Positions 5,471 through 27,086 of a DNA stretch of 33,905 nt are shown here, in pieces. How positions within the stretch are numbered: the stretch's first letter is position 1; each line of letters starts with the position of its first letter. The notes under the pieces are model-generated. The model did no database searches and had not been told where the DNA came from. It was given only the letters and a program-made list of their open reading frames with translations. The DNA is from an uncultured bacterium. GTDB taxonomy: Bacteria > Hydrothermota > UBA3073. The position numbers and the translations under genes were made by a program. The stretch covers positions 1 to 33,905 of the forward strand of contig CAZRTU010000001.1 in the NCBI GenBank assembly GCA_964603075.1. The letters run 5' to 3'.

Positions 5471-5570
5471 TGAGTAGAATTACAAAAACCGAGTTCCTAA
5501 TTCCCAATAAAAGTCCAAAGGTCAAATGATTTGAGAACTCAGGAAATTGATGTCCATTGGATATTGTTAA

Positions 5571-13143: not shown

Positions 13144-13631
13144 TCCAACAATGCATTAATCAGGACATCCTGAATCTGGTTTTCCTTACCATCCTTGAAG
13201 CCAACACTGTAAAATAGTATATCTCCAGACTTGTCTACTATGATGGTGGTCGGCAGGACGAAGACCTTAAGGAGATTTCTAATATGAGCATCTTCATCAA
13301 TTAACACCCTGTATTTCCACTTCCTTGCCTCCACAAATGGTTTTACCTGTGCCTGTTGTCTCGGACTATCTTCGTTTATTGCCAGCACTTCAAATCCCTG
13401 TTCGTGGTAACCATCATAGATCGGTTCCAATTTTGTGAGCTCCTTTATACAGCTTTTGCAGTTTATCGCCCAGAAAGATATCATGATGACATCAAACTCA
13501 GAAAGAATGGAATCCAGGACAACTTCCTCCCTATATATATCCTTAAGTGAGAAACTCGGAATCTTATTCTCACTCTCTGCAAGTAGAGCAAGGGGTATTA
13601 AAAAAACGATCGCATATATGAACCTTCGCAT
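13140..13631 (-). CDS. TlpA/ResA-like periplasmic thiol:disulfide oxidoreductase
   Basis: Has a signal peptide (MRRFIYAIVFLIPLALLA) and a thioredoxin-fold CxxC (FWAINCKSCIKEL). ATG 13631 is preceded by GGAGG. The longer ORF-track start at 13676 is rejected. Confidence 0.8.
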   Translation of the reverse strand: MRRFIYAIVFLIPLALLAESENKIPSFSLKDIYREEVVLDSILSEFDVIMISFWAINCKSCIKELTKLEPIYDGYHEQGFEVLAINEDSPRQQAQVKPFVEARKWKYRVLIDEDAHIRNLLKVFVLPTTIIVDKSGDILFYSVGFKDGKENQIQDVLINALLE

Positions 13632-13837
13632 TCTGCCTCCGGGTATTAATAAAAGTATTGTCAAAAATTTAACCACAGACCAATTTGCGAAAAGCGAAGA
13701 GGGAAGAGCGAAGGGCGAAAAATCATCTCTCCTCTCTTTTTAAACCACAGATTCACCCTGTACCTATATATGGTGCAGGGGAACCGCAGAGTGCTCAGAG
13801 CATTTTTGAATTTTGATTTGTATATTTGATTTTTGAT

Positions 13838-13905
13838 ACCTGCCTACCGCAGGCAGGTTTAATATTTGATATTCAATATTGCCTCCCTGCCTGCCGGCAG
13901 GCAGG
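13838..13905. repeat. Two related GC-rich palindromes (REP-like / terminator-like)
   Basis: ACCTGCCT-ACCGC-AGGCAGGT at 13838-13858 and CCTGCCTGCC/GGCAGGCAGG at 13886-13905. They are separated by the AT palindrome AATATTTGATATTCAATATT and lie just downstream of the 13946 stop. Confidence 0.6.
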
Positions 13906-13945
13906 TGTGGTTTGTCATATTCTGTTTGACTATACCTTAATAAAC

Positions 13946-15028
13946 TCACTGTGCAATGGTGTGAGTCCTTATGGTCTTAGATGTTAGAATGTCACTAACG
14001 GTAAAACCTACGATAAGTTCACCCGACTCATTCCCGGAGAATATATCAATGGTAAATGTGGTGTCCTTCTCTCCAGGAAGGAGACTTATGTCCCCGTTGT
14101 AGGGCAACACATAGCAGCCTCCCTGGAAACAGAGCCCAACGCCCCAGTCGGCAGGGGGGTCACCTGATACACTTACAGAAATATCGTAATCGTATTCGTT
14201 TTCTCCCCTGTTCTGGAGGTGAAAATGATAACTGACTGCATCGTTCAGTGCAACACTCTGGATTGTATCCTCTACGCAGTAGAAATTGAAACTGGAAATA
14301 GGGCTTATTCTGTTAATCGTGCGAGAATTCAAGATCTCCTTGGTGCGGATATTCTGGACGAAGGCCACCAGGCCTATCATTTTTGGATCCCATCTGTTTA
14401 CGAAAGATAAGGTCGTGTCGATTTCTGAATTACATGTAATTCCTTCTGCATCAGGCAGCACGGCTCTGACTACATGGTTGAATATGGAATCGTGTGCCCC
14501 AGATTGGATGAAATCTACACTATCTTCGTACAGGATTGTAAGTATCCTTAGGGTATCTTCTGTTAGTGGTTCAACAACCGCGGTAGAGAGATGAATCTCT
14601 CCGACTGTGCCGATAACAGAGGATTCAAGGCATATCTCGATCGGAGATGGATTTATTCTTATGCCTGTAAACATACTTTGATATTCACCATCGCCGGGTG
14701 CCCCAAAAACCTTTGATACACCATCGAAGAAGGCTGTGGGTGCCTCATGTACTCCGTACCATTCTGCCCGGTCATCGGTAAAGGGTTGGGGAGAAAGCGT
14801 GTCATCCAGGATGCTCTGATGATATATGAGCACAGAGATACTTTCCGGGTAGGTAGAGGAGAGTTCAAACGCCTCCTGTTCAGCTGCAGGACAATTCAAA
14901 CACCTTGCGTATCCAAAGATCTCGAGCAGAACAATCCTGTTAGTTGAACCCATCGGAAGGGTGGGCATCCATGAACAACCAAAACAGGTAATCAAGACGC
15001 AGGCAATAAGCCACTTAAAGGAATTCAT
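13946..15028 (-). CDS. Omp28-like thioredoxin-fold lipoprotein with a C-terminal Ig-like domain
   Basis: The signal peptide ends in cysteines (LITCFGC). The motif VLLEIFGYARCLNCPAAE resembles the Omp28-family 'EEFTG.WC..CP' signature. The C-terminal ~110 aa look like a beta-sandwich. Confidence 0.55.
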   Translation of the reverse strand: MNSFKWLIACVLITCFGCSWMPTLPMGSTNRIVLLEIFGYARCLNCPAAEQEAFELSSTYPESISVLIYHQSILDDTLSPQPFTDDRAEWYGVHEAPTAFFDGVSKVFGAPGDGEYQSMFTGIRINPSPIEICLESSVIGTVGEIHLSTAVVEPLTEDTLRILTILYEDSVDFIQSGAHDSIFNHVVRAVLPDAEGITCNSEIDTTLSFVNRWDPKMIGLVAFVQNIRTKEILNSRTINRISPISSFNFYCVEDTIQSVALNDAVSYHFHLQNRGENEYDYDISVSVSGDPPADWGVGLCFQGGCYVLPYNGDISLLPGEKDTTFTIDIFSGNESGELIVGFTVSDILTSKTIRTHTIAQ

Positions 15029-15264
15029 AGGAATTTATAGATTCTATTATTTATAATTTTTGGTAGTTCGTAGGGCAAGGCTTCCTAACTGCCCTAAAGC
15101 GACGATAAATTAGTTCGTAAGGCAAGCGGTAAAGCTCATTGCCTAGTATTAGAATCATTGAGCCAATAAAAAACAGTCGTAGAGTCATGGTGTCATTGGG
15201 TTCTTTGTTCTTTATTCTTCTCCCTTTCTCCTTCTCTACTCAATTCCCCTGTGGTCATATGATA

Positions 15265-17049
15265 CTATCTTAACAACACAAGATTCTCTGTCTGGCAGTC
15301 TCTGTCAGATAAAATTTTCACGAAATATACACCTCCAGGCAAGCGATTCCCACTGCCGTCAGTGCAATCCCATTTTGTCTTTCCGCCATCCGGTTTAAGT
15401 TTTCTTACAATCCGCCCTGATACATCATATATGGCGATCTCACACCCTGGGTTTGTGGACTGGTACCATATGGATACGTGCGACTTCACCAGCGTGGGAA
15501 TTATGGAGAGGTTCGATGCAGGAAGTATCTCGTCCTCATCGATAGAAAATATCTTAACAGGTACAGTTATGTCATCAATGTACCATCCTTCATCAGTGAC
15601 ACTATAACCACTTATAAATCTGTATCTCAGTCTCGCTGTCTGTAGTGCAAATTCATCGAGTGGATAACTGAAATCTTCCCATGAGTTGTCTCCTCCCGTG
15701 ATAATCTCGAGTATCTTCCACCAACCAGAACCGTTATCGATCTCGATGAAACCATAGTCCGAATTATATTGCATTCTGTATTTATGCTTGAACGTAAGAT
15801 GCGTGTCGGGCGTCGCAACAAAATAAGGGGTGACCAGGGAGGCATCATTCTCATTTGTGTACTGCCAGCTACCTTCTATGCCACAGTACCACGAGTGGGT
15901 TGGCGAATAGCTGGCATGCTCGGTTATATGCCAGTGGTCGTTTATACCGTAGTGATCCCACCCCGCGCTCCCCGATTCGACCTCATCTGATAAACCGAAC
16001 TGCGTTGAAACGAGTATCGGGAGGGTATCCTCAGATGTTCTGAAATCAACTATTAATTCTGTTTGATGTGGGTCGGGACATACGGCTTCGGCATAGGCGG
16101 TGAATGTACACACAGTATCGACATCACCAGGCAGGATCCTGTTGCCAGTCGGGTCGAGTTGTGTAATCTTCAGAAGAGAATCCTCGCTTCTTATGATTAT
16201 GCGCTCATTGTAGACACCTGTGCCAAAGTTTTTCGCAAGCACCTTGGCGGTCAAAAAATCTCCTGGTCTGAATATATCATACTGTTCGTCGGGGATCACA
16301 GCCATCCCGTAATATTGCATCTTAGCCTTCTCTGTAACCCCTGTCCATGCGCCCTGATAGATCTCTCTTGCGGAGGACTGTACAAAGACCACGATCCTAC
16401 AGTTATCCTCAACCCATGAGGGATTTATTTCGAATTCGCGGGATCTTGTTATAAAACCGCCAGAAGGAATTGACACAGCCTCACCATTTGCGTTTGGAAG
16501 CATATCCCTCTCTACGAAATGCAGCCTGTTCATGCCCTGCCAGTAGTACTCGATGTCACTCTCTACGATAACGAAGTGAAGGGTTCCATCGATGCCAACC
16601 GCAGAGGTATTTAATACAGTTGCCTCCACGACTCCACTGTCCTTGTCTGCTCCATATGTACACTCAAGCTCTATCTCAAGAGGACTACCTATACCTATCC
16701 TCTGATAATAGTTTTTTCGGTAGGTCGGAAATACCGTACCAGTATGAAGCCCTCCGACCGTCTGTATTATGCCATCGAAGCGGACGTGTGGAATGCCGCT
16801 TATCCCGTAATAGCTCGACCTGGTCGCCGCATCCGTTGTGTAAAAGGGATCAGAACCCCAGACATGATAAGCGATAATCATAACAGAGTCATATACTCTA
16901 TCATATAACTCCTCGAGTCCTCTTGCTGCCCCAGGACAGTAGCCACAACCAGTAGCCGTGAATTGCTCTATAACTACAGTCCTCTGGCTGCCATATGCCG
17001 TGCCAAATAAGGTGACCACGCACAGTAACAAAATCATATTCTTGGACAT
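15265..17049 (-). CDS. Omp28-like thioredoxin-fold protein with MAM/choice-of-anchor-J-like domain and T9SS C-terminal sorting domain
   Basis: ATG 17049 is preceded by GGGAGG. It has a signal peptide, and VVIEQFTATGCGYCPGAARGLEELY is the Omp28-type CxxC. The central region (GWDHYG...HSWYCG...GWYIDDITV) is lectin/MAM-like. The C-terminus IAIYDVSGRIVRKL...GVYFVKI...LVLLR is typical of a T9SS CTD. Confidence 0.65.
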   Translation of the reverse strand: MSKNMILLLCVVTLFGTAYGSQRTVVIEQFTATGCGYCPGAARGLEELYDRVYDSVMIIAYHVWGSDPFYTTDAATRSSYYGISGIPHVRFDGIIQTVGGLHTGTVFPTYRKNYYQRIGIGSPLEIELECTYGADKDSGVVEATVLNTSAVGIDGTLHFVIVESDIEYYWQGMNRLHFVERDMLPNANGEAVSIPSGGFITRSREFEINPSWVEDNCRIVVFVQSSAREIYQGAWTGVTEKAKMQYYGMAVIPDEQYDIFRPGDFLTAKVLAKNFGTGVYNERIIIRSEDSLLKITQLDPTGNRILPGDVDTVCTFTAYAEAVCPDPHQTELIVDFRTSEDTLPILVSTQFGLSDEVESGSAGWDHYGINDHWHITEHASYSPTHSWYCGIEGSWQYTNENDASLVTPYFVATPDTHLTFKHKYRMQYNSDYGFIEIDNGSGWWKILEIITGGDNSWEDFSYPLDEFALQTARLRYRFISGYSVTDEGWYIDDITVPVKIFSIDEDEILPASNLSIIPTLVKSHVSIWYQSTNPGCEIAIYDVSGRIVRKLKPDGGKTKWDCTDGSGNRLPGGVYFVKILSDRDCQTENLVLLR

Positions 17050-17104
17050 ATATCCTCCCACGTTGAAATTAGATCCATTTTCTTTAACAGAAACGAATAA
17101 ACTC

Positions 17105-17524
17105 CTACGAATCTATAATCTCATAGGTGTATCTAATATCGCATGTCTTGGTAAGTATTGCAGAGACCGAACAATATTTGTTTTTGGAGAGATCAATCGC
17201 CCTCCTCACCTTCGCCTGGGAGACGTCTTTACCCTTTATGGTGTAATTTATATCTATTTTTCGAAAGACCATGGGAGGTTTATCATCTCTTTCGCCGTGC
17301 AATTCCATCTCCAGATTGCTTAACTCTACCCCCATCCTCCCCAGGATATTTACGATGTCCATTCCAGTACATCCTCCAAGTGCCGTTAGCACGAGTTCCA
17401 TAGGAGTCGGACCCTTACCACGACCACCATGTTGTATGCTGGAGTCCATCAAGATGGTATGTCCTGTTGCTGGAGTGGCTGAGAAAGCCATTCCATCGAC
17501 CCAATTGACCTTTGTCTTACACAT
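17105..17524 (-). CDS. OsmC/Ohr-family peroxiredoxin-like protein
   Basis: SD GGAGG. OsmC-fold signature GPTPMELVLTALGGCTGMDIV plus a second Cys in KNKYCSVSAIL. Confidence 0.8.
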   Translation of the reverse strand: MCKTKVNWVDGMAFSATPATGHTILMDSSIQHGGRGKGPTPMELVLTALGGCTGMDIVNILGRMGVELSNLEMELHGERDDKPPMVFRKIDINYTIKGKDVSQAKVRRAIDLSKNKYCSVSAILTKTCDIRYTYEIIDS

Positions 17525-17703: not shown

Positions 17704-18141
17704 TTAAGGGCTCTCTGTAGCCTTGCTATCGAAATTATCTTTAGACAGTTCAAGCAGTGTGATTGAATCAAGAAAGGAGGCTATGTGGTTTTCAAGTCTT
17801 TCCCAGTATATGTGGCAGGTGCATTTATCCAATCTGCTACACCTCCTATTGGTGCTGCTCTCTACACAACGGACAGTTGTTATGGGACCTTCTGCCGCGC
17901 GAATGATGTCCCCAATCTTGATTTCAGCAGGGCTTTTCCCCAGCATATAACCACCACTTCTGCCTCTTTCACTCGTTAATAATCCCGATTTTTTTAACTC
18001 GCTGAATAATCTTCCAAGGTATTTTTTCGACATATCCTGCTTCTCTGATATGTATTTTAGCGAAACCGGACTATTCTTTTCATGTCTCGTCACCTCCAGC
18101 ATCGCCCTGAGTGCGTATCTGCCCCTTGTAGATATTCTCAT
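17704..18141 (-). CDS. Rrf2-family transcriptional regulator (probable Fe-S cluster type)
   Basis: Starts MRISTRGRYALRAMLEV with a winged HTH. Cys cluster CVESSTNRRCSRLDKCTCH. The start is moved to ATG 18141 because the ORF-track start at 18222 lies inside a perfect promoter. Confidence 0.85.
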   Translation of the reverse strand: MRISTRGRYALRAMLEVTRHEKNSPVSLKYISEKQDMSKKYLGRLFSELKKSGLLTSERGRSGGYMLGKSPAEIKIGDIIRAAEGPITTVRCVESSTNRRCSRLDKCTCHIYWERLENHIASFLDSITLLELSKDNFDSKATESP

Positions 18142-18193
18142 TGTTGAAGTAAGGTCTTGACTTGGGATGATATTTAGGATTAATTGTTCCGTA

Positions 18194-18222
18194 ATTATAA
18201 CATAATAAATGTCGTTTGTCAA
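18194..18222 (-). promoter_or_regulatory. Consensus sigma70-type promoter of the Rrf2 gene
   Basis: The minus strand reads TTGACA, then a 17-nt spacer (AACGACATTTATTATGT), then TATAAT. Confidence 0.7.
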
Positions 18223-18464: not shown

Positions 18465-19772
18465 TTATCGCACGATGGTCAGTCTCTCCCTAAAGGCAGA
18501 TGAGCCATAAATTATCCAGAGCAAATAAACACCGCTTGAGAGTTCTCTGCCCATCATGTCTGTACCATCCCAGGATACAGTGTGGGTATAAGATGGGTAG
18601 GTATTGTTGTTAAAATGCCAGATAAGTCTGCCTGACAGGTCATAGATGGCTACCATGAAAGACAATTCCTTATGTACTGAGCGGCAAGTGTCTCTTTTTG
18701 ACTCCAAGATTATGTGAGTCTCTTTACAGAATGGATTGGGCGATACAGAGAATTTCAGGTAGGGATAGGGTATCTCGAGTATTCCCTGTGGTGGCTCATA
18801 GATGGCTATGCTCTGTGGTCCGTCACCCACATTGAATACCCCTATATTATTGCCATCTGGAGAGAGTTTTGTCACAACATCTTCCATAAAGCTACACACG
18901 TAACAATTCCCATCACTGTCACAGTCAACGCCCATTACACCTGTTCCTAAGAGGATCGGGTTGGAGTTTCCATGAATGATCCTCTCGGTTTGGGTGTCTA
19001 TCATATAAACATGTCCGTAGTCTATCCAACCGCCAGCACCTATCCAGGCTTTTCGGTCTTGGGATATTGAGATAGAGATCGGTGTCCCTCCTATTGGCAG
19101 TGTGTCAATAACCTCATGCGTCTTAGAATTTATCCTGTGGACGCTACCGGCTGTTGTAGAATAATTGCCCGTGCAGACAGCATATAGTTCACCTTCATAA
19201 TCAACGGCTAAATTTTGGGGATTCTTACCAACCTGTACGGAATCCAAGACAGAGTTGGTTTTTGTATCAATAACGTAAACCATCCCGTTGCCCCATGTCC
19301 AGGTGCTCGGGTCGAATGAGGAGATGGCTACAAATAATTTGTAATCCGAGATACATAAACCCTCAGGTGATAATCCCACCCCGATTGTATCTACGATCTC
19401 TCCTGTATTTACATTTATACAAAAGACAGAGTTCACACACAGGGCGCTTACGTATGCTATCGAGTCATTAAGGAACTCCATAGCGTAGGGATTGCTACCA
19501 TCTGGTAGTATGATTATGTCCAAGATATTGTCGTTCGATATGTCGATTTTATAGATATCGTCGGAGGTTGAATTAACTATATATATCTTATCTTTATTTA
19601 TACAGATCCAGTTCGGTGCGAGACCGAGGGTGGCGATATCGTTTTCTACCTGGCTGGTTTCTAAGTCTATGCTGGAGAGGGTCTCACCGATACCATTGAC
19701 AACGAAAGCGGTTCTGGGCATAGGGTCACAAAGAAAGATTGACATTGTTATATTGAAGATAACGGCATACAT
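18465..19772 (-). CDS. YVTN/YncE-like beta-propeller protein with T9SS C-terminal sorting domain
   Basis: ATG 19772 is preceded by AGGGGGA. It has a hydrophobic N-terminus. Blade motifs recur (G..P..I.......YIVN; GLSPEGLCISDYKLFVA; VGKNPQNLAVDYEGELYAV; IGGTPISISIS). The C-terminus SPNPF...IYDLSGRLI...GVYLL...LTIVR is T9SS-CTD-like. It lies 62 nt downstream of the TonB receptor. Confidence 0.7.
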   Translation of the reverse strand: MYAVIFNITMSIFLCDPMPRTAFVVNGIGETLSSIDLETSQVENDIATLGLAPNWICINKDKIYIVNSTSDDIYKIDISNDNILDIIILPDGSNPYAMEFLNDSIAYVSALCVNSVFCINVNTGEIVDTIGVGLSPEGLCISDYKLFVAISSFDPSTWTWGNGMVYVIDTKTNSVLDSVQVGKNPQNLAVDYEGELYAVCTGNYSTTAGSVHRINSKTHEVIDTLPIGGTPISISISQDRKAWIGAGGWIDYGHVYMIDTQTERIIHGNSNPILLGTGVMGVDCDSDGNCYVCSFMEDVVTKLSPDGNNIGVFNVGDGPQSIAIYEPPQGILEIPYPYLKFSVSPNPFCKETHIILESKRDTCRSVHKELSFMVAIYDLSGRLIWHFNNNTYPSYTHTVSWDGTDMMGRELSSGVYLLWIIYGSSAFRERLTIVR

Positions 19773-19834
19773 AGAAATCCCCCTTATTAATCCGGCTGTT
19801 TGGTGAGGCACGCGAAATATTTATACCTGGTGCC

Positions 19835-21871
19835 TTATAGGGATAGTCTAATGCTCAATGACCATGACCTCATCGGCATTGGATATCTCTCGAGAATCTC
19901 GTATTGTTGGTTTGTTAGATTATCTATCTCTACCCTTATCTCTGTATTCTTTCTCAAGATAGAGGTATTGAGACCCAAATTGAGGGCTATAACACTATAT
20001 GCAGATAGCCATTTTGTATTGGCTTCACGGATTGCTCTTTTGTCTACCCACCTCCACTCAAAGTTTAAAAAAAAGGGTTCGTATCTTGTCGAGGCTCTCA
20101 GGGTTATCGTGTGTTTTGGTCTTAAAACAAGATAGTTGCCGTAGTAGTCCTCACCGTGGTTCTTGGCGTTTAGATATGTATGATTGGCCTCGAATTCCGC
20201 ATGCCCACACTCCCATGAGAGCTTTTCCTCTATCCCACTTATTATTGCATGACTTACATTCTGAGGGACATATCTATCGTAGAGACTCCTTCTCCATACT
20301 ATTATATTTCTAATATCCGTACGAAAAAAGGTGATATCGGCATTAACTATCCCCTGGAAAGGAACGGATAACCCGAATCCCGTCTCGAGGTTAGTACCCG
20401 TCTCTGGCAGAAGATCAGGATTCCCCATTGCAAAGATATCCGGCACCCAAAAGAGTTCATGGAATGAAGGCACTCTGTACGTTTTTCCCCAGTTCACATG
20501 AATAACGAATATATAATTTTCTCCGCTAGATAAGGCGATTCCCATCTTTGGTGTTACTATCGGCTCAAGGTTTTCCACCATGTCGCATCTCAGACCGAAG
20601 ATAGCCACACCCCTCACTTGGGAGCCAAATCTTGTTGTATTCTTACACCACAAAGATCCTCTCTCTCTTTCTCTTATCATATCGTTTTGAGGTCTAATTC
20701 TGTCTTCTGTGTCTAGAAGTGTGTATAAGTAAGAGCAACCGTATGATATGCTACCCTTCGCCCAGATACTTTCAGATTTCAGTATCTGCCCATAGGAGAT
20801 ATTATGGAAACCTGTGTTTATCTTTGACCAGGAAGATGGATCTCGGTATTCCCATAGGTCACCCGTGAAGTAAGTCTTAGAAGTAAGAAAGGGGAGAGTG
20901 ATGTCCGTCTGTAAGAAGGTCCTTGAGTCTGTTGAGCTTGCATCCTGGGTTGTTTGCTCTAAGGCACCCGGAAGTCTATTCTTAAGGAGAGAATGATGGA
21001 TTTTTACAGAAGCCTCGATATCTCTGTATTTAAACGGTATCTTAAAGAGCATATTGTATGAGGTAGACGATGAATTCTCCCTTATGTGTTCCTCGCCGGA
21101 TTCGTCTTTGTATATGAAATCATCAGTTTTTGAATACTGTAAGGAGAGAAAAGGATTGCAGATAATGCTGTAGTAATTTTTACCGAAACTGCCAAGTTCT
21201 AATTTTACTTTCGGTCCCTCCCTTTTCCGAGTTGTCAGGATGTTAATTATACCCCCTATTGCCTCCATCCCGTAGATTATTGAGCCACCCTTGATTACCT
21301 CTATTCGTTCAGTTATTTCAGCAGGAATAGATGAGATATCAAAAATACGTCCACCAAGTTCATTCATTAAAATGCCATCCATCAATATTAATACCTTATT
21401 TGGGTCACAACCCCTGATGGTTATAAATTTGCTCCCTCCCGTTTCTCTTATAAAGACACCAGGAAGAGAGCTCAAGATACCACCAAGGTCTTCTTGGTTC
21501 GACTCTTCAATATAATCTCTTTCCACTACAAAATAGTCTGGTGCCCTCGCATTAACGAGGATTTCTTCCATCGGTATAGGGGATGGGGCAAGGTAGAAGT
21601 CGACCCTCGCGGTCTTATCAATCTCCACATCAACCTGTTTGCTTTTTTTTTCGAATCCCATTAAACTTACAGAAAGTAGATATTTAGATGGTTGTATATC
21701 CATTATGGCATAACGACCGACTTCGTCGGTATAAGTTAAATACCCACTCTCTTCAATACATAGGCAGGCATTGGGAAGAGGGAGACCCGTCTCTCTATCT
21801 CTCACATAGCCCTTGACCTTAACGTCAGGATCGTTAGGGAGAATAGATAGGATGCACAAAAGGAGGAACAT
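19835..21871 (-). CDS. TonB-dependent receptor (BtuB-like by context) with CarboxypepD_reg-like N-terminal domain
   Basis: Signal peptide followed by VKGYVRDRETGLPLPNA...GRYAI (carboxypeptidase-regulatory fold). The plug region is LSSLPGVFIRETGG..FITIRGCDPNKVLILMDGILMN. A long beta-barrel follows. It is directly preceded by a cobalamin riboswitch. Confidence 0.8.
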   Translation of the reverse strand: MFLLLCILSILPNDPDVKVKGYVRDRETGLPLPNACLCIEESGYLTYTDEVGRYAIMDIQPSKYLLSVSLMGFEKKSKQVDVEIDKTARVDFYLAPSPIPMEEILVNARAPDYFVVERDYIEESNQEDLGGILSSLPGVFIRETGGSKFITIRGCDPNKVLILMDGILMNELGGRIFDISSIPAEITERIEVIKGGSIIYGMEAIGGIINILTTRKREGPKVKLELGSFGKNYYSIICNPFLSLQYSKTDDFIYKDESGEEHIRENSSSTSYNMLFKIPFKYRDIEASVKIHHSLLKNRLPGALEQTTQDASSTDSRTFLQTDITLPFLTSKTYFTGDLWEYRDPSSWSKINTGFHNISYGQILKSESIWAKGSISYGCSYLYTLLDTEDRIRPQNDMIRERERGSLWCKNTTRFGSQVRGVAIFGLRCDMVENLEPIVTPKMGIALSSGENYIFVIHVNWGKTYRVPSFHELFWVPDIFAMGNPDLLPETGTNLETGFGLSVPFQGIVNADITFFRTDIRNIIVWRRSLYDRYVPQNVSHAIISGIEEKLSWECGHAEFEANHTYLNAKNHGEDYYGNYLVLRPKHTITLRASTRYEPFFLNFEWRWVDKRAIREANTKWLSAYSVIALNLGLNTSILRKNTEIRVEIDNLTNQQYEILERYPMPMRSWSLSIRLSL

Positions 21872-21890
21872 AACGTTAGTGTGAAAGAAT

Positions 21891-22036
21891 AAAAAAAACC
21901 GAGCTTTACACTCGGTGGTATTACATTGACTCCACCCTCGAGAGTCATGTGTCTATTTGTACCAGGTATTCCGAGTGTAACGGCAGCGGGGCTCTGTCGG
22001 ATTTTCACCGTACTTTCCCTGCTATTTGACCTATTC
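21891..22036 (-). promoter_or_regulatory. Cobalamin (B12) riboswitch with terminator expression platform
   Basis: The minus-strand RNA reads AGGGAAAGUACGGUGAAAAUCCGACAGAGCCCCGCUGCCGUUACACUCGGAAUACCUGGU. This carries the conserved core and a B12-box-like element. It is followed by the terminator ACCGAG-UGUAAAG-CUCGGU plus U8 (21891-21916). The 5' boundary is approximate. Confidence 0.75.
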
Positions 22037-22405
22037 TATTTCGAGCTTATGGATATATTCTTTTGCAACACTTGCTATATCCACGATGTCTGAAAATTCT
22101 CGTATGACCTTGGCAAGGTGCCACTTGGCCTCTTTCTTCTCTCCGTTTGTGAATGACTTTAATCCTGCCTCCAGTAATTCAATGGCCTGTTTTCTTAACC
22201 TTGCCTCCTGTGCAGCCGACAATTTCTTTCTCGTTTCCACCCTATGTCTGGGCAGTCTATCGCCTCTTTTCAGACTCATCCTGCGTAATTTTGTTTCTAT
22301 GGATTTCCTCGTCACTCCGAAGTGCTTGGCGAGTTCACCATTACTCATATAGAGAAAATTACCTCTTATAAATTCCATATCTTCTTCAGACCATTTTTTC
22401 GCCAT
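22031..22405 (-). CDS. Small helix-turn-helix (Myb/SANT-like) protein, function unknown
   Basis: ATG 22405 is preceded by AAGGAGG. The N-terminus WSEEDMEFIRGNFLYMSNGELAKHFGVTRKSIETKLRRM looks like an HTH. The C-terminal half is helical and Lys/Glu-rich. Confidence 0.55.
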   Translation of the reverse strand: MAKKWSEEDMEFIRGNFLYMSNGELAKHFGVTRKSIETKLRRMSLKRGDRLPRHRVETRKKLSAAQEARLRKQAIELLEAGLKSFTNGEKKEAKWHLAKVIREFSDIVDIASVAKEYIHKLEIE

Positions 22406-22444
22406 CCACACCTCCTTTCATAATATGTTTGTCAAAGCCTGAAG

Positions 22445-22473
22445 ATTATACCATAGAATTTCTTAAAAGTCAA
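22445..22473 (-). promoter_or_regulatory. Consensus sigma70-type promoter of the HTH gene
   Basis: The minus strand reads TTGACT, then a 17-nt spacer (TTTAAGAAATTCTATGG), then TATAAT. Confidence 0.7.
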
Positions 22474-22553: not shown

Positions 22554-22582
22554 TTGACTTAACTTTTGTTTTGTGTTATAAT
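22554..22582 (+). promoter_or_regulatory. Consensus sigma70-type promoter of the DUF58 gene (implies a leaderless mRNA)
   Basis: TTGACT, a 17-nt spacer ending TGT (extended -10), then TATAAT. The ATG at 22589 lies only 6 nt after the -10 hexamer. Confidence 0.65.
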
Positions 22583-22588
22583 TGGCAT

Positions 22589-23470
22589 ATGAAAAAATAC
22601 ATAGATCCCCATATAATAGCACATATGAGATCTCTTGAGTTGAAGGCAAAGACGGTGGTGGATGGGTTTTTGGTTGGTTTACACAAGAGTCCTTACCATG
22701 GGTTCTCACAGGAATTTGTTGAACACAGGCAATACGATCCCGGCGATGACCCACGCCATATAGATTGGAAGCTGTATGGAAGGACGGATAGGTATTACCT
22801 AAAGCAGTTTGAGGAGGAGAGAAATCTTAGAGGTTATATAATCCTGGATGGTTCAAGGTCAATGGCTTATCGTAACCATGGTTCTATGAGCAAGTGGGAG
22901 TACGGTGTAGTAGTTGCTGCCTCCTTCGCTTATCTACTAGTCCTTAATAAGGATGCAATGTCTCTATCTATATTCGATACCTCCACGAGAGACTATACCC
23001 CACCTTCTACAACCAGGGCAGGTTTGAGCAGAGTTTTTGATACACTCGAGGAGTCCTCTCCAAAGGGCAAGACAGCGATAGGGAAGGCAGTAGAAGAACT
23101 GTCTGGCAAGGCGAGGAGGAGAGCCTTCGTTCTTGTTCTATCGGATCTATTCGCTAAAGGGGATTCCACGCTAAAGGCACTTATAAATCTGCACGCGAGG
23201 GGCAATGAGGTTGTGGTTGTTCAGATACTGGATAAGGCGGAGAGAGAATTCCCCTTTAGGGGCTCGGTGAGGTTTAAGGATATGGAAACGAGAGACGAGC
23301 TACTCGTTGATGCGAGTTCAATTAGAGACAGGTATAGAGAGATGATGGAAAGCTTTATCTCGAACACAAAGAATGAGTTGAGGAAGAATAACATAGACTA
23401 CATAGAAGTATATACTGACTCGCCGATCGAAAAAGTACTCTATTTCATATTGGAGAGAAAGGTGGTCTGA
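22589..23470 (+). CDS. DUF58 domain protein (vWA-like, MoxR/Bat-system associated)
   Basis: Hallmark motif GLHKSPYHGFSQEFVEHRQYDPGDDPRHIDWKLYGRTDRYYLKQFEEE. The start is set at ATG 22589 because the ORF-track TTG at 22571 lies inside the promoter spacer. Confidence 0.8.
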   Translation: MKKYIDPHIIAHMRSLELKAKTVVDGFLVGLHKSPYHGFSQEFVEHRQYDPGDDPRHIDWKLYGRTDRYYLKQFEEERNLRGYIILDGSRSMAYRNHGSMSKWEYGVVVAASFAYLLVLNKDAMSLSIFDTSTRDYTPPSTTRAGLSRVFDTLEESSPKGKTAIGKAVEELSGKARRRAFVLVLSDLFAKGDSTLKALINLHARGNEVVVVQILDKAEREFPFRGSVRFKDMETRDELLVDASSIRDRYREMMESFISNTKNELRKNNIDYIEVYTDSPIEKVLYFILERKVV

Positions 23471-23545
23471 GCAAATAAGTGTGTCTGCTCTAATTTTCTC
23501 TCTCTTAAATACCAGTGGACTCGTTTATAAAAGAATTATAAACCC

Positions 23546-25192
23546 ATGTTCTTCTCAGCACCCTTATATCTTTTAGGTCTTTTGGCCCTACCCATTCCTT
23601 TCATTATCCATCTCTTTGAGAGAAGAAGGGTAAAAAGGATTGATTTCCCCTGGCTTCGGCTGGTGGAGGAGTCAATAAAGGGAGGAAATCTATTTCTCAG
23701 GTTAAAAGAATGGATCCTTTTGGCCATGAGAACACTTGCATTGTTACTACTTATTATGGCTTTCGCAAACCCCACCTTGAGCAGGGAGAGAGGGATAATC
23801 GTAATAGATGACTCCTATGATATGTACACAAAGAGTGGGGAGGGTATACTTTTCGACGAGGCTAAAGATATTGCAGAGAGGACTGCTTCAGACAAGGGCT
23901 ATAATATTGTTTTGTCCTCAGGCAGGGGCTATGATAAAAATATAGAGCCATCTTTCAAGATGTACCACCCCCCTCAGGATGAAGAAGGAGATGTCATATT
24001 CATAACTGCGAAAATGATCCCACAGAAAGAGGGTATCATCATCCTCGAAGGAGAAAAAAACCTGCTATCGATAGATACTGTGTATCTAAAGGACCCACTA
24101 CCACAGACAGGAACAAGTAATACAATCAACGTTGGGGTGAGCAACCCCGGCGAGAACGAGGTAAGGAGAAATGTATTACTCCAGTGGCAGGGAGATAGAA
24201 GCTACATAGAGTTTTCCTTTCCTCCTGGACAGACATATTTCTCCCTCCCGATTGAATTTAATGGCCCAGGCAGTTATTCCGGATATGTTGATATCGGGGA
24301 AGATGCACTCTTTATTGATAATATTTACTATCTATCTTTTGAGGTTCCAAAGAAGATCACGGTGGGTGTCGTGGAAGGAGATGAAGGGTCATCCTTCTAT
24401 GTTGAAAGGGCTTTGAACCCAGAGGGGGTGAAAACAGAGTTCGAGTTGAGCAAGATAAGTCATCCGGGATTGATCAACAAAGATGTCCTGATATTCGTGG
24501 ACGCGCCATATGCGGAAAACGGAATCCCATCTCTGATATTTAGAGAGGGAGCGTCTGGGTACATCTCCAGGGATTTTTACTTTTCTTTAGGGGATATAGA
24601 CAGGGTTCACCCTATATTTTCTATTTTTGATGAGGAATGTATTGAAGAGATAGCCTCCCATAAGATATTCAAGAGAGCTGAGGCGGGTTTAGAAGGGAAG
24701 GTACTCGCCTACTTTTCTGATGGTCAGCAGGCTATTTTGCAGAGGGACAGTAATATGTTCTTTCAGTTTTTACCTACAGTAGAAAGTACGGATCTGGTTC
24801 TCTCACCAAACTTTCCACCTATTCTATATCGTACTATAAGGTATCTAAAGAAGGGTTTTGACTATCCCGCCATGACGTACTGCGGTAAAGATGTGAGGAT
24901 GAATGTGGACGAGAATCGTGTTTACGACGTGATTGACCTCACAGAAGAAGCGCGCTGGAAGGTTGCCCCCCTAAATGAAACAGAGGGTCTTTTTCTATCC
25001 TTTAGACCACCCCACCCTGGTATATACAGTATAGGTAGTGTAGGGAAGATCGCAGCAAACATAGAGAGAGGCTTCTTTAGAGCTAAGTGGTCGGATATGG
25101 ACAGGAGGTTTTCTTCATTGAAAAGGTGGTTCTTGCTTTTCTGTTTAGTCTTTTTAATATGTGAAATGTTGGTAAGAAACCTGAGGTCTTAA
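23546..25192 (+). CDS. BatA_N (aerotolerance-regulator N-terminal) domain membrane protein
   Basis: The N-terminal double-TM signature PLYLLGLLALPIPFIIHLFERRRVKRIDFPWLRLV is BatA_N/TIGR02226-like. There is a C-terminal TM segment (WFLLFCLVFLICEML). No obvious vWA MIDAS motif was seen. Confidence 0.65.
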   Translation: MFFSAPLYLLGLLALPIPFIIHLFERRRVKRIDFPWLRLVEESIKGGNLFLRLKEWILLAMRTLALLLLIMAFANPTLSRERGIIVIDDSYDMYTKSGEGILFDEAKDIAERTASDKGYNIVLSSGRGYDKNIEPSFKMYHPPQDEEGDVIFITAKMIPQKEGIIILEGEKNLLSIDTVYLKDPLPQTGTSNTINVGVSNPGENEVRRNVLLQWQGDRSYIEFSFPPGQTYFSLPIEFNGPGSYSGYVDIGEDALFIDNIYYLSFEVPKKITVGVVEGDEGSSFYVERALNPEGVKTEFELSKISHPGLINKDVLIFVDAPYAENGIPSLIFREGASGYISRDFYFSLGDIDRVHPIFSIFDEECIEEIASHKIFKRAEAGLEGKVLAYFSDGQQAILQRDSNMFFQFLPTVESTDLVLSPNFPPILYRTIRYLKKGFDYPAMTYCGKDVRMNVDENRVYDVIDLTEEARWKVAPLNETEGLFLSFRPPHPGIYSIGSVGKIAANIERGFFRAKWSDMDRRFSSLKRWFLLFCLVFLICEMLVRNLRS

Positions 25193-25196
25193 TAAT

Positions 25197-27086
25197 ATGC
25201 TTCTTCTGTATATCTTCCTCTTAAGTAATACAGTTTTTTACTCCGCAGGGAGACTTGTCTATGATTTTGGGGAAGGGATGATAACGCTTAAAGAGAAAGC
25301 TGTGGTAGATTACAGAGAGACAAAAGTCCTTTCCGATAGTATCGTCTACGATACCAGGACAAAGGATGTCTGGGCTTATAGAGAACCTATATTATGTGTA
25401 GATAGCGATACTATCTACGGCAGGTCCATGGCATACAACCTGGACTCCAAAAAGGGTGTCGCAATCGATGGCAGGAGTAGGGTGGAGAAAGGATGGTTCG
25501 AAGGGAGGACGGTGAGAATGGTAGCGCCGAAGATACTCAATGTAGATGATGGGAAGTTTACGACCTGTGACCTAGATCCACCTCACTACTATTTCTGGGC
25601 TAAATCTCTGAAGGTATACGCAAACGATATGGTTTATGCAAGACCCCTTGTTCTGGTAGTTCAGGATATCCCTGTCTTTTTCCTCCCGTTCTGGTTCTTT
25701 CCCATAAAGAATAAGAGGTCTTCTGGTTTGCTATTTCCAAAGGTTGGCAGGAGTTCGACCCTTGGAAGATATGTTAGAAATATGGCATACTACTGGGTTG
25801 TGTCTGATTATATGGATATTACGTTTAACCTCGATTATATGGAGAGAAAGGGGGTTGCACTGGGTATTTCTTCTGTGTGGCTATACAAACCCAGTTTATC
25901 AGGGAATATTGAAGCCCAATATGTAGACGAAAATCGCATAAGGAGAAGATGGAAGGTCAAGTTATCACATAGCCATAACTTACGAGATGGCACCGTGATA
26001 AAGGCAAGGGGTGATTTTGTAAGCGACCTCTCTTTCAATATGGATTACGAGGATAATGTTGTGAAAGAGCTGGACCAGGTGATTTATTCTTATATATCAA
26101 TCTCCAGGAAGCTCGGGCCCATCTCGGCGGGACTCGTCGTAAGAGAGACGAGAGATCTAAAGACCGAAGACAAGTGGGGAAACTATCCTCGGATAACCCT
26201 ATCAGCACCATCTATTGGATTACTTGGTGGGCATTTCTCATACTCGGGTGTTATATTGAATTCCATGGTCAACGGTGATGTAGAGAGAAGCAGCGATAAC
26301 AACATGAGATTCACAATCCCCGGAAAGGTGTGGCATTTTAATATCTCACCGAGTGTTGGCGGCAGATTCTTGGTATCCTATGCAGACAGTGGAGTAACCT
26401 TGGAGAGGTTTTACAACGGTGCTTTAGGTATCGGCACAGTGCTATACGGCAGGACCATTTTTAGAGAGCCCGAGTTAAGGCACACAATAAAACCCTATGT
26501 ATACTATAAGTTCACAAAGTCTGACGACTCGCATACCGAAAATTTAGGCATCTCTATAGAGAATGATTTTAAGATAATATCCTGGAAGGGGAACGAGATT
26601 GACCTGGGCAGTGTAGATCTCAGTTCGACCTGGGATTATGAAACCAGCCGCTGGGTGCCATATGTTTTTACACTAAGGACTGCCGATGTGTTTGGATTTT
26701 CTTTTAGGGGAGGATTAAACTGGGATATTTACTCCGACAGTCTTTACGGAAAGTATCTAATGGCAGATTACTCGTTTAGAAGGGGTGGCTTCCTGGCAAA
26801 GATAAACTATAATATAAGAGAGGGTGGAGATGAGAGTGTCTGGGGAGACGTTGCTCTTAGCCCGACCAGGGGGTGGAGGATAGAGGGCGGCATAAGATAT
26901 GACCTGAGGGAAGGGAGTCTCATAAACGAGCGCCTCTCTCTGGTTAGAGACCTGCATTGCTGGGAACTTCAATTCAACTATCAGAGATACGGTGACAGGT
27001 GGAACTACGATTTCAGATTATCTATAAAGGCGATTCCCGAGGTAAAGGTCGGAAAAGATATCATGCGTATGTTACTCGAGGGCTAA
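25197..27086 (+). CDS. lptD: LPS-assembly protein LptD (OstA family)
   Basis: The motif TTCDLDPPHYYFWAKSLKVY....VYARPLVLVVQDIPVFFLPFWFFPIKNKRSSGLLFP.VG.S...G......YYW matches the conserved LptD/OstA_C core as I recall it. The rest looks like a beta-barrel. Confidence 0.7.
   Translation: MLLLYIFLLSNTVFYSAGRLVYDFGEGMITLKEKAVVDYRETKVLSDSIVYDTRTKDVWAYREPILCVDSDTIYGRSMAYNLDSKKGVAIDGRSRVEKGWFEGRTVRMVAPKILNVDDGKFTTCDLDPPHYYFWAKSLKVYANDMVYARPLVLVVQDIPVFFLPFWFFPIKNKRSSGLLFPKVGRSSTLGRYVRNMAYYWVVSDYMDITFNLDYMERKGVALGISSVWLYKPSLSGNIEAQYVDENRIRRRWKVKLSHSHNLRDGTVIKARGDFVSDLSFNMDYEDNVVKELDQVIYSYISISRKLGPISAGLVVRETRDLKTEDKWGNYPRITLSAPSIGLLGGHFSYSGVILNSMVNGDVERSSDNNMRFTIPGKVWHFNISPSVGGRFLVSYADSGVTLERFYNGALGIGTVLYGRTIFREPELRHTIKPYVYYKFTKSDDSHTENLGISIENDFKIISWKGNEIDLGSVDLSSTWDYETSRWVPYVFTLRTADVFGFSFRGGLNWDIYSDSLYGKYLMADYSFRRGGFLAKINYNIREGGDESVWGDVALSPTRGWRIEGGIRYDLREGSLINERLSLVRDLHCWELQFNYQRYGDRWNYDFRLSIKAIPEVKVGKDIMRMLLEG

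Follow-up and report, generated by a model that had tools for sequence, protein, structure and literature searches.

The closest described counterparts of the locus considered here are BtuG1, BtuG2 and BtuG3 of Bacteroides thetaiotaomicron, which are surface B12-binding propeller lipoproteins of the DUF5074 type (PDB 3DSM, 8BMX, 8OKV, 8BLW and 8PTD), and the BtuB receptors (E. coli, 1NQE; B. thetaiotaomicron BtuB1-3, 8BLW_A, 8BMX_C and 8P98_A). In BtuB2G2, an N-terminal linker forms a hinge (PMC10404256). A wider parallel is found in the SusD/RagB lids on SusC-like TonB transporters ('pedal bin'), where a neighbour-encoded surface protein captures the substrate and caps the barrel, as proposed below for this locus, although SusD/RagB proteins are all-helical, TPR-like, lipid-anchored and dedicated to glycan or peptide substrates, whereas the protein described here is a propeller. 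BtuG has been regarded as exclusive to Bacteroidetes (PMC6143338), and capped TonB transporters as apparently so (PMC10404256). Here we describe a locus in a 33,905-nt stretch of DNA (hereafter, the window) from an uncultured bacterium of the WOR-3 group, which does not belong to Bacteroidota, and we consider it probable that this locus is a B12-repressed module for corrinoid capture and import of the BtuB-BtuG type. Since a distant but true relative of BtuG lies beside a B12-regulated transporter in WOR-3, the two-part BtuB-BtuG uptake system is not limited to Bacteroidetes, contrary to the published statements.

On the minus strand, the locus reads as a short cobalamin-riboswitch-like aptamer, an intrinsic terminator, a receptor gene and a propeller gene. 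The receptor ORF (19835..21871) encodes 678 aa and the propeller ORF (18465..19772) 435 aa counted from an ATG at 19772, which is preceded by the Shine-Dalgarno-like motif AAGGGGGA; a GTG at 19811 is an alternative start. Both ORFs and the 62-nt gap between them agree with the first-pass annotation, as does the nature of their products, a receptor with a CarboxypepD_reg-type N-terminal domain and a propeller (see below). Neither T9SS machinery, nor btuFCD, nor a B12-dependent enzyme was found in the window, which weighs against the proposed module. The arrangement was compared with 27 related loci from WOR-3, Zixibacteria, Cloacimonadota, "Ignavibacteria", Eisenbacteria and spirochaetes, 24 of them with enough upstream DNA. 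The propeller gene lies directly downstream of the receptor gene in all 24 informative loci, frequently with a 4-nt overlap between the two; the genes that follow the pair in relatives are housekeeping genes, a further point against. The conserved synteny, with the propeller gene right after a B12-regulated receptor gene as for BtuG, lends strong support to the proposed role of a BtuG-like corrinoid-capture partner.

The receptor comprises a CarboxypepD_reg-like domain (aa 19-106), a plug (aa 115-208) and a beta-barrel, and carries the TonB-box-like motif EEILVNA at aa 102-108. The corresponding Pfam models all pass their cut-offs (CarbopepD_reg_2, 55.6 bits; Plug, 69.4 bits; TonB_dep_Rec_b-barrel, 94.5 bits). 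The best PDB match of the receptor alone is E. coli BtuB (1.3e-22), and a family profile built from 20 orthologues matches E. coli BtuB (1e-64) and B. thetaiotaomicron BtuB1, BtuB2 and BtuB3 (2.5e-60, 5.6e-57 and 4e-54) over their full length, whereas siderophore receptors are matched at 1e-37 or weaker. The BtuB proteins are thus the best and full-length profile matches of this family, with which they also share the plug, the barrel, the TonB-box-like motif and cobalamin riboswitch control. The receptor differs from BtuB in its additional N-terminal CarboxypepD_reg-like domain, a domain typical of the FCB group that is also present in SusC-like transporters. Furthermore, its best NCBIfam model, TonB-B12 (TIGR01779), is matched at 146.9 bits, far under the equivalog cut-off of 599.7. 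Cobalamin is its candidate substrate, and the first gene encodes a BtuB-like TonB-dependent outer-membrane transporter.

The second gene product is a detectable, distant homologue of BtuG. Its residues 20-326 (18795..19715) form a predicted seven-bladed propeller of the YVTN/YncE/DUF5074 type, which passes the Pfam models YNCE (31.2 bits; cut-off, 27.1) and, just, DUF5074 (28.5 bits; cut-off, 27.2), as well as the YVTN repeat model TIGR02276 (70.2); for comparison, the known BtuG3 and BtuG1 score 72.3 and 49.6 bits with DUF5074. In a phmmer search with the propeller sequence alone, 13 solved BtuG1/2/3 chains were matched (E 3e-9 to 1.7e-7), these PDB entries being identified as BtuG in PMC10404256 and bioRxiv 10.1101/2024.02.16.580637. 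A profile of 32 propeller orthologues matches BtuG1 (8blw_B) at 5.4e-23 in a single colinear stretch (profile positions 45-362), and hhalign aligns the family with BtuG at a probability of 100% over 322 columns, even though the identity is only ~20%. In agreement with these results, the AF2 model (mean pLDDT 88.8, with values exceeding 90 for most propeller residues) retrieves BtuG structures at Foldseek ranks 2-17 (E 1e-19 to 4e-17), with target-normalised TM-scores of 0.76-0.83 and an rmsd of 2.2-3.4 Å, except for the 626-residue two-domain BtuG1 chain 8blw_B (TM 0.44). Below BtuG, the matches drop to 1e-13 and a TM-score of 0.65 for hydrazine synthase, Lp49 and YncE. E. coli YncE (3VGZ), although likewise a seven-bladed YVTN-type propeller, is therefore a much weaker structural match (rmsd ~12 Å), and it is a periplasmic protein that binds DNA in vitro and has no receptor partner.

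These data bear differently on the separate claims of the first-pass annotation. The assignment to the fold class of BtuG holds, whereas the statement that no similarity to BtuG could be recognised does not, and a merely analogous fold is ruled out by the significant homology in sequence, profile and structure. Correspondingly, of the proposed "analogous, undescribed" corrinoid-scavenging partner, the BtuG-like capture role agrees with the synteny, the riboswitches and the BtuB-like receptor, but the protein is a homologue of BtuG rather than an analogue. Nor is the locus a new functional system, since it is a homologous module of the BtuB-BtuG type. What is new is the surface route, with a T9SS C-terminal domain (CTD) in place of a lipobox and lipoprotein export signal, the occurrence beyond Bacteroidota and an only partly conserved pocket. 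The second gene product is a distant BtuG homologue that appears to lack a lipid anchor and would bind the corrin ring in the central cavity of its seven-bladed propeller.

Read by eye, the signal sequence at the N-terminus of this protein (19716..19772; MYAVIFNITMSIFLCDPMP...) is hydrophobic and contains no canonical lipobox, the residue ahead of the Cys (position -1) being L; by the same reading, plain signal-peptidase-I-type signals are found in most orthologues. Its residues 339-435 (18468..18758) correspond to a T9SS type A sorting domain, separated from the propeller by a low-confidence linker of ~12 aa (aa 327-338) and bearing the motifs SPNPF, IYDLSGRLI, WDGTD..G..LSSGVYLL and a terminal RLTIVR. 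This domain falls just under the curated thresholds in the window protein (PF18962, 19.8 vs 27; TIGR04183, 22.7 vs 23) but exceeds the threshold in the orthologues from loci L001 (28.1) and L014 (35.6), AF2 predicts a beta-sandwich for residues 339-433, the propeller family profile matches the PorU CTD in 6za2 (1.8e-5), and NCBI names the orthologues 'T9SS type A sorting domain-containing protein'. The CTD and the missing canonical lipobox fit the earlier proposal that T9SS sorting replaces lipidation, although the CTD scores of the window protein are under threshold, and surface display by this route is likely. Following the T9SS mechanism in PMC12398890, the protein would leave the cytoplasm via Sec, the type IX system would recognise the CTD and carry the propeller over the outer membrane, and, as for other type A cargo, the CTD would then be replaced by an anionic LPS linkage. 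The C-terminal strand of the propeller (aa 319-325) completes one blade together with the three N-terminal strands, and the C-terminal tether should thus exit beside the exit point of BtuG's N-terminal lipid tether. Across the family, some members carry a T9SS CTD as anchor and others a pair of dockerins, while others again have a lipobox Cys and no C-terminal domain (e.g., P0031, '...FFSC-SEDD'); judging from these sequences, such variation may reflect a need for surface attachment, which we count in favor of a capture and import module. In such a module, the surface propeller, most likely sitting on the transporter as a cap, would catch scarce corrinoids and deliver them to it, with TonB-driven import as the last step.

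The same parts and the same ligand could also serve a diffusible or long-tethered corrinoid carrier ('corrinophore', cf. the haemophore HasA) instead of a fixed lid, with T9SS releasing or loosely tethering the propeller, B12 being caught at a distance and docking to the receptor being transient. Such a carrier would be compatible with the two fates of type A T9SS cargo, which is either released or anchored (PMC12398890), and with the lack of overlap between the window genes, and the dockerin-bearing paralogues suggest attachment to a partner other than the receptor. Moreover, unlike BtuG, the propeller has no N-terminal hinge linker, its mature N-terminus beginning ~5 residues before the first strand, so that a stable lid is not assured. 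However, the strict adjacency of the two genes and their frequent 4-nt overlaps in relatives suggest a 1:1 complex, the lipoprotein members of the family are unable to diffuse, and the propeller resembles BtuG, a receptor cap, in its fold as well as in its cavity face. We therefore regard a free carrier as unlikely and a lid-like geometry as the better-fitting arrangement.

In the cavity itself, the likeness to BtuG is only partial. In the hhalign alignment, the BtuG2 contacts Gln93, Ser131, Trp194, Ser195 and Gln219 correspond to N54, N94, W158, T159 and N184, i.e., ~5 of 13 ligand contacts are kept, and several corrin-amide-binding positions are thus retained as Asn, Ser/Thr or aromatic residues. 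Among 181 family members these positions hold Asn (171), Asn (167), an aromatic residue, Ser/Thr and Asn (179), respectively, and the pocket-facing positions are the most conserved of all. In contrast, most of the aromatic 'cage' is missing, Arg133, Trp149, Trp272, Tyr316 and Tyr335 of BtuG2 have no equivalent, and the blade-1 Glu-Gly-x-Phe loop, in which Glu55, Gly56 and Phe58 lie, has lost 5 residues relative to BtuG2; the family has instead a signature of its own (C200-T201-G202 and N184-P-Q). These losses would suit a surface protein of generic YVTN/YncE type (such as an adhesin, a structural or S-layer-like cap, or a protein that binds another ligand) that is merely genetically coupled to a BtuB-like receptor importing B12 alone, as in E. 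coli. In this regard, the best single PDB match of the propeller, by sequence and by Foldseek, is not BtuG but the Methanosarcina mazei S-layer protein 1L0Q, which shares the YVTN repeats and the order of a propeller followed by an Ig-like (PKD) domain, indicating that part of the similarity to BtuG is generic to YVTN repeats. Likewise, Asn/Ser ahead of the blade Pro is common in such repeats, as the 1L0Q alignment illustrates, which makes the conserved Asn residues weak evidence. Nevertheless, the 1L0Q match consists of two overlapping, out-of-register stretches of repeats, whereas BtuG is matched colinearly across every blade; BtuG outranks every propeller except 1L0Q, whose rank derives partly from the second domain (rmsd 16 Å over the two-domain alignment); and 1L0Q is archaeal, with neither a receptor partner nor a B12 context. 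Furthermore, at least five phylum-level groups retain the propeller gene beside that of a BtuB-like receptor under cobalamin riboswitch control, at only 24-55% identity, which is hard to explain without a shared process. Together with the conservation centered on the pocket, this makes a propeller that does not bind corrinoids quite improbable, and corrinoid binding by the propeller is the reading we favor.

The riboswitch-like element ahead of the two genes (21956..22033, minus strand) is an AdoCbl-II-like short aptamer (RF01689, 31.5 bits, E 3.2e-5), with the core GGGAAA...GGUGAAAAUCC...GCCCCGCUGCCG and a B12-box-like ACUCGGAAUACCUG. No riboswitch reached the Rfam gathering score in the scan of the whole window, the match appearing in a local scan and falling short of the RF01689 score of 36.5; the riboswitch that had been placed ahead of the two-gene unit is thus present, albeit as a short, sub-threshold variant. 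The same sub-threshold element occupies the same position in the WOR-3 relatives L001 (34.7 bits) and L028 (32.1 bits), which argues that the element in the window is real. In 18 of the 27 loci, a canonical Cobalamin riboswitch (RF00174, 55-115 bits) lies just upstream of the receptor on the same strand. Downstream of the aptamer, an intrinsic terminator (21888..21916, minus strand; ACCGAG-UGUAA-AGCUCGGU followed by U8; -10.2 kcal/mol), recovered by a terminator scan (hairpin and T8, 21916..21898), provides a putative expression platform. Its 5' arm CCGAGUGU (21915-21908) can pair instead with ACACUCGG of the aptamer (21978-21971) to form an antiterminator, and this alternative pairing appears in the minimum-free-energy fold. 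Thus, readthrough from upstream would reach the aptamer, which, when bound by a corrinoid, would retain its 3' segment ACACUCGG and let the hairpin and U8 form, ending transcription; without a corrinoid, ACACUCGG would pair with the hairpin 5' arm and both genes would be transcribed. The switch would in this way turn the module off in response to B12. A reading in which the element does not function as a B12 switch in this organism and the pair imports a non-corrinoid, such as another tetrapyrrole or a metal chelate, would agree with the sub-threshold aptamer, the receptor score, the location of the aptamer behind a coding ORF instead of a promoter and two loci (L002 and L030) in which no riboswitch was found. 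It is very improbable, however, given an aptamer core that the window and L001 share at ~95% identity despite diverging flanks and terminator sequence, the recurrence of the element in L028, the full RF00174 elements of orthologous loci, the intact terminator/antiterminator logic (hairpin and T-run are kept in L001 with a different sequence) and the BtuB proteins being the best solved relatives of the receptor family.

The ORF preceding the riboswitch (22031..22411, minus strand) encodes 126 aa with an HTH-like character (a weak GcrA match of 20.6 bits, below the cut-off), and its end coincides exactly with the start of the aptamer. Its positional counterpart in L001 is 83% identical to it, and in L028 a 124-aa gene occupies this place. 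Upstream of it lies a sigma-70-like promoter (22445..22473, minus strand; TTGACT, a 17-nt spacer and TG-TATAAT), which is a consensus match only (11 of 12 positions) in a region where the total of promoter-like sites is not above that of shuffled sequences. The small ORF may be cotranscribed with the riboswitch or may contain an internal promoter.

The two-gene unit consists of a 678-aa TonB-dependent receptor ORF (19835..21871, minus strand) and, 62 nt downstream, a 435-aa beta-propeller ORF (18465..19772, minus strand), preceded by a short aptamer, which bears out the arrangement of riboswitch, receptor and propeller described in the first-pass annotation. A AAGGGGGA motif lies upstream of the propeller ATG at 19772, an in-frame GTG at 19811 offers an alternative start, and NCBI's protein (P0001) is 435 aa long. 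The remaining genes of the window are those of an ordinary chromosome (tRNAs, recA, glmS, EF-Tu and the S10 ribosomal operon), and the named relatives of the propeller belong to candidate division WOR-3.

The propeller is a homologue of BtuG, and the profile evidence for this is strong. At the level of domain models, it passes Pfam YNCE (31.2 bits, cut-off 27.1) and the YVTN repeat model TIGR02276, and it also passes, marginally and over aa 162-224 only, DUF5074 (PF16819; 28.5 bits against a cut-off of 27.2), the family to which BtuG belongs (72.3 bits for BtuG3 and 49.6 bits for BtuG1). When the propeller was searched against all PDB chains with phmmer, the top match was 1L0Q, a Methanosarcina S-layer YVTN propeller, and the next matches (E 3e-9 to 1.7e-7) were 3DSM, 8BAI, 8BMY, 8BAZ, 8BMX, 8BN0, 8PTF, 8PTD, 8BLW_B, 8PUJ, 8OKV and 8P97, all of them BtuG1, BtuG2 or BtuG3 of B. 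thetaiotaomicron (PMC10404256; bioRxiv 10.1101/2024.02.16.580637). A profile built from 32 propeller orthologues matches BtuG1 at 5.4e-23 in a single colinear stretch covering the whole propeller, and 1L0Q in two repeat stretches that are out of register. The same alignment was compared by hhalign with one of BtuG1, BtuG3 and three Bacteroidales relatives, giving a probability of 100% over 322 columns; for this purpose the BtuG1 and BtuG3 sequences were rebuilt from printed alignments and verified against all published contact residues. In an AlphaFold2 model (mean pLDDT 88.8), aa 20-326 form a propeller of seven blades and aa 339-433 a beta-sandwich. Foldseek against the PDB ranks 1L0Q first, as a two-domain match with an rmsd of 16 Å, and ranks 2-17 are all BtuG1, BtuG2 or BtuG3 with target-normalised TM scores of 0.76-0.83 and rmsd values of 2.2-3.4 Å, except for 8blw_B, a 626-residue two-domain BtuG1 chain (TM 0.44, rmsd 14 Å). 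Below these the scores fall markedly, with hydrazine synthase beta, Lp49 and YncE coming next. The first-pass annotation had proposed a BtuG-like capture protein that was merely analogous to BtuG, with no similarity recognisable by eye; the BtuG-like function is retained, and the denial of similarity is overturned by phmmer, the profile, hhalign and Foldseek alike. Identification of the propeller as an enzyme (SGL/lactonase, Vgb lyase or NHL) was dropped, its support being sub-threshold, repeat-level Pfam matches alone.

The receptor passes the Pfam models CarbopepD_reg_2, Plug and TonB_dep_Rec_b-barrel and carries a TonB-box-like EEILVNA at residues 102-108. Searched as a single sequence, it finds the plug of E. 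coli BtuB as its best match (1.3e-22), and its two best NCBIfam matches are the BtuB equivalogs TIGR01779 and NF007926, despite scores far below their cut-offs (146.9 against 599.7 bits and 128.3 against 836, respectively). A profile of 20 orthologous receptors gives full-length matches to E. coli BtuB (1e-64) and to B. thetaiotaomicron BtuB1 (2.5e-60), BtuB2 (5.6e-57) and BtuB3 (4e-54), compared with 7e-57 for CirA and 1e-37 or weaker for siderophore and haem receptors. Judged by these sequence comparisons, the receptor is BtuB-like, with the solved BtuB proteins as its closest relatives.

In a scan of the whole window at Rfam gathering thresholds, two tRNAs were the only hits and no riboswitch was reported. 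A permissive local scan places an AdoCbl-II element (RF01689, a cobalamin riboswitch model of Rfam clan CL00101, as is RF00174) at 21956..22033 on the minus strand, with 31.5 bits (E 3.2e-5) against a gathering score of 36.5. On its 3' side lies an intrinsic terminator (21916..21898; hairpin plus U8, -10.2 kcal/mol). The aptamer segment ACACUCGG (21978-21971) is complementary to the 5' arm of the terminator, CCGAGUGU (21915-21908), and this alternative ACACUCGG/CCGAGUGU pairing appears when the full leader is folded to its free-energy minimum. The layout is that of a classic transcriptional OFF switch, and switching would probably run in that direction. Sub-threshold AdoCbl-II-like elements occupy the equivalent position in two WOR-3 loci (L001, 34.7 bits; L028, 32.1 bits); L001 shares with the window an almost identical aptamer core and a hairpin plus T-run, and differs from it in the flanks and in the sequence of the terminator. 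The leader has both a conserved core and an expression platform, at the site where known B12 switches sit. The core is almost unchanged in L001 and L028 even though the flanks diverge, RF00174 occupies the same position in orthologous loci, and the element is treated as a real, short riboswitch variant. RNAalifold on the four short-variant aptamers gave no usable covariation, three of them being almost identical and the fourth poorly aligned.

Immediately upstream of the aptamer lies a small ORF (22031-22411, minus strand; 126 aa, HTH-like, weak GcrA match) that ends exactly at the aptamer start and is itself preceded by a promoter-like site with a near-consensus sigma-70 sequence (22445-22473, minus strand). 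The riboswitch therefore has a cistron on either side and does not directly follow a promoter. The small ORF is 83% identical in L001, above the values for the receptor (52%) and the propeller (55%), and a 124-aa gene takes its position in L028.

How the propeller reaches and remains at the surface is suggested by its termini. The last 95 residues of the window protein score just under the cut-offs for a T9SS C-terminal sorting domain (CTD; PF18962, 19.8 against 27; TIGR04183, 22.7 against 23), and the CTDs of orthologues pass Pfam (28.1 in L001, 35.6 in the related locus L014). The profile of the 32 orthologues matches the PorU CTD at 1.8e-5, the motifs PNPF, IYD..GR, WDG and SGVY are visible in the C-terminal region of the window protein, and NCBI labels some orthologues 'T9SS type A sorting domain-containing protein'. 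A domain scan of the 34-kb window found no T9SS components. At the other end, the N-terminus reads MYAVIFNITMSIFLC-DPMP, with Leu at -1 and the first strand beginning six residues past the Cys. The reading of '...SIFLC' as a lipobox was rejected on account of this Leu, the lack of an equivalent lipobox in the closest relatives and the presence of a CTD. The combination that marks BtuG lipoproteins, namely a lipobox cysteine, a Bacteroidota export signal and an N-terminal hinge linker, is not found in the window propeller.

Among relatives of the propeller, three types of anchor can be distinguished from N- and C-termini read by hand; an automated pattern-based classification of 150 representative matches was set aside as crude. 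The first, a plain signal peptide without Cys plus a T9SS CTD, is present in most close relatives. In the second, found in Zixibacteria and MAGs labelled 'Ignavibacteria', a pair of dockerin type I repeats in the C-terminal ~70 aa stands instead of the CTD (L004 5983-7179, L005, L013, L018 and L021-L024; Dockerin_1 passes Pfam in L004 and L022), an ending that would imply attachment to a cohesin-bearing partner. The third is a lipobox cysteine without any C-terminal domain, often followed by acidic residues, as in P0031 ('...LAFFSC-SEDD'), P0032, L002a, L026, L027 and many representatives of 335-356 aa. That the anchor changes and the propeller does not argues for surface attachment as the feature of importance. 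In the AlphaFold2 model, the last strand (aa 319-325) forms one blade with the first three strands, so a C-terminal tether would exit beside the point where the N-terminal lipid linker of BtuG does. Type A CTDs are cut by PorU, and the cargo is linked to anionic LPS (A-LPS) or released (PMC12398890). The main competing explanation keeps the same function and makes the propeller a carrier that is set free or only loosely tethered; the lack of the N-terminal linker that serves as hinge in BtuB2G2 makes this plausible. The reading preferred here is that of a surface-tethered propeller.

The corrinoid pocket of BtuG appears to be kept only in part in the propeller. The BtuG2 contacts considered were Glu55, Gly56, Phe58, Gln93, Asn107, Ser131, Arg133, Trp149, Trp194, Ser195, Gln219, Trp272, Tyr316 and Tyr335, mapped onto the propeller by profile alignment rather than structural superposition; residue frequencies at the mapped positions were tallied over 181 members of the family. 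By this mapping, five contacts have conservative counterparts: Gln93 corresponds to N54 (N in 171/181), Ser131 to N94 (N in 167/181), Gln219 to N184 (N in 179/181), Trp194 to W158 (a mostly aromatic position) and Ser195 to T159 (mostly S or T). The blade-1 loop that carries Glu55, Gly56 and Phe58 is five residues shorter, with a mostly conserved E30 nearby, and the profile alignment yields no equivalents of Asn107, Arg133, Trp149, Trp272, Tyr316 or Tyr335. YVTN repeats in general often have Asn or Ser just ahead of the blade proline, and for this reason the conserved Asn residues are supportive of corrinoid binding, not decisive. The main elements of the propeller-family signature are N184-P-Q and C200-T201-G202, the three residues of the latter occurring in 173, 167 and 181 of 181 members, respectively. 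Cys200 (codon 19173-19175, minus strand) is a lone near-invariant cysteine with no conserved partner cysteine, and T201 aligns with Arg244, a ligand contact in BtuG1. Cys200 could face the ligand, possibly toward the cobalt.

A scan of one genome per species recovered relatives of the propeller at 27 loci (24-55% identity) from WOR-3, Cloacimonadota, Zixibacteria, MAGs labelled Ignavibacteria, Eisenbacteria and spirochaetes. A homologue of the window receptor lies directly upstream of the propeller in all 24 loci with enough upstream DNA, often with a 4-nt overlap, and RF00174 (55-115 bits) stands just before the receptor on the same strand in 18 loci, its place being taken in the WOR-3 group by the short riboswitch variant. 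The predicted co-occurrence of riboswitch, receptor and propeller in relatives is therefore found. Six genes downstream in Zixibacteria (334, 359, 267, 481, 442 and 207 aa) had been considered as btuFCD plus cobamide salvage and were discarded, as Pfam assigns DUF1385, release factor 1 and TldD/PmbA. Since the downstream neighbours are unrelated housekeeping genes with no B12 genes among them, the conserved unit comprises the riboswitch, the receptor and the propeller only. That the propeller is a structural element that binds no corrinoid, or serves a substrate other than B12, is less likely given its linkage to cobalamin riboswitches across phyla. When the propeller-family profile was run against 1.84 billion cluster representatives, 1,662 proteins matched at E ≤ 1e-30, including some large YVTN proteins with many repeats.

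Longer versions of the locus also occur. A four-gene module is present in Cloacimonadota-like and unclassified MAGs (L002 3546-5862, L003 3678-5922, L030 3621-5919 and L032 3627-5913), in the order receptor without CarboxypepD_reg, ~420-aa protein, 349-353-aa propeller paralogue and CTD-bearing propeller. A T9SS CTD is the sole recognisable part of the ~420-aa protein, which might act at the surface as another binder of corrinoids, as BtuH, BtuJ or BtuK do, and in L002 the propeller paralogue bears a lipobox cysteine. Scans of L002 and L030 found no riboswitch even at E ≤ 0.5; the L030 receptor is abutted by another gene, and its contig ends 650 nt further upstream. Outside the FCB group, an uncultured Spirochaetales genome (L026 1268-7720) has a longer operon in which a cobalamin riboswitch is followed by genes for a Big_2-domain protein, a 392-aa protein, the receptor, a lipoprotein-type propeller and TonB.

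For the surface-tethered propeller, a working model can be proposed. The genes themselves, their relationship to BtuB and BtuG, the predicted fold, the conserved gene order and the linkage to cobalamin riboswitches are shown by the comparisons above; corrinoid binding, the export route, the attachment and the geometry of a lid are inferred. When corrinoids are scarce, RNAP would read through the leader, and the receptor and propeller would be made. The propeller would be exported by Sec across the inner membrane and by the T9SS across the outer membrane, and would be tethered by its C-terminus, with corrinoids presumably bound in its central cavity. From there they would be handed to the BtuB-like barrel, with the propeller probably acting as a cap, and TonB-driven import would follow. 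Once corrinoids suffice, the aptamer would fold, the terminator would form and transcription would be shut off.

Compared with BtuB-BtuG of Bacteroides, the system is the same, and the window module differs in lineage, in anchoring and in part of the pocket. BtuG homologues have been described only in Bacteroidetes, as lipoproteins with a lipobox and export signal (Wexler et al., 2018, PMC6143338), and lipoprotein-capped TonB transporters have been regarded as seemingly exclusive to Bacteroidetes and credited for their success in the gut (Abellon-Ruiz et al., 2023, PMC10404256). A 2026 review treats BtuH and BtuJ, and not BtuG, beyond Bacteroidota, and full-text literature searches returned no paper tying BtuG to the T9SS or to these phyla. 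Here, the two-protein module is present in WOR-3, Zixibacteria, Cloacimonadota and other uncultured lineages from the environment, and its putative cap appears to be attached in three ways. A more far-reaching proposal, tentative and on balance doubtful, is that the capped BtuB-BtuG transporter is not an invention of Bacteroidota, being instead an old and widespread module of FCB-related candidate phyla and some spirochaetes; that attachment of the cap is interchangeable (N-terminal lipid, C-terminal T9SS/A-LPS or dockerin); and that the pocket chemistry of this clade is unlike that of BtuG, maybe with the C-T-G cysteine (173/181) as a cobalt or upper-axial ligand. If the presence of the module outside Bacteroidetes is confirmed, the origin of capped transporters would shift well outside gut Bacteroides, and the anchor types would amount to a natural experiment on the need for an N-terminal lipid hinge in the 'pedal-bin' mechanism. 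Nutrient capture would also join the known roles of T9SS cargo, and candidate-phyla genomes would gain a marker of corrinoid scavenging (B12 auxotrophy). Specialists in B12 uptake and in the T9SS should find the result of use and to some degree unexpected; it does not amount to a new kind of system.

Several neighbouring genes also merit description. After a 243-nt gap, the propeller gene is followed by an Rrf2/IscR-like regulator (17704-18222, minus strand) and an OsmC-like protein (17105-17524, minus strand). An Rrf2 gene follows the propeller in the WOR-3 relative L028 as well (5466-5897), with no evident link to B12. Further along the same strand lies a cluster of envelope and redox genes (11779-17061) encoding DUF6029 (11779-13143), an AhpC/TSA thioredoxin-like protein (13140-13676) and two Omp28-like proteins (13946-15028 and 15265-17061), the second of which has a MAM-like region and a T9SS-type CTD; for both, the best NCBIfam match is 'Omp28-related selenoprotein', well below its cut-off. 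On the plus strand, diverging from the small ORF, the genes at 22571-27086 resemble a Bat aerotolerance-type cluster, with a DUF58/VWA protein (22571-23470) and a BatA-type double-transmembrane protein (23546-25192) beside an LPS-assembly gene encoding an LptD-like protein (25197-27086).
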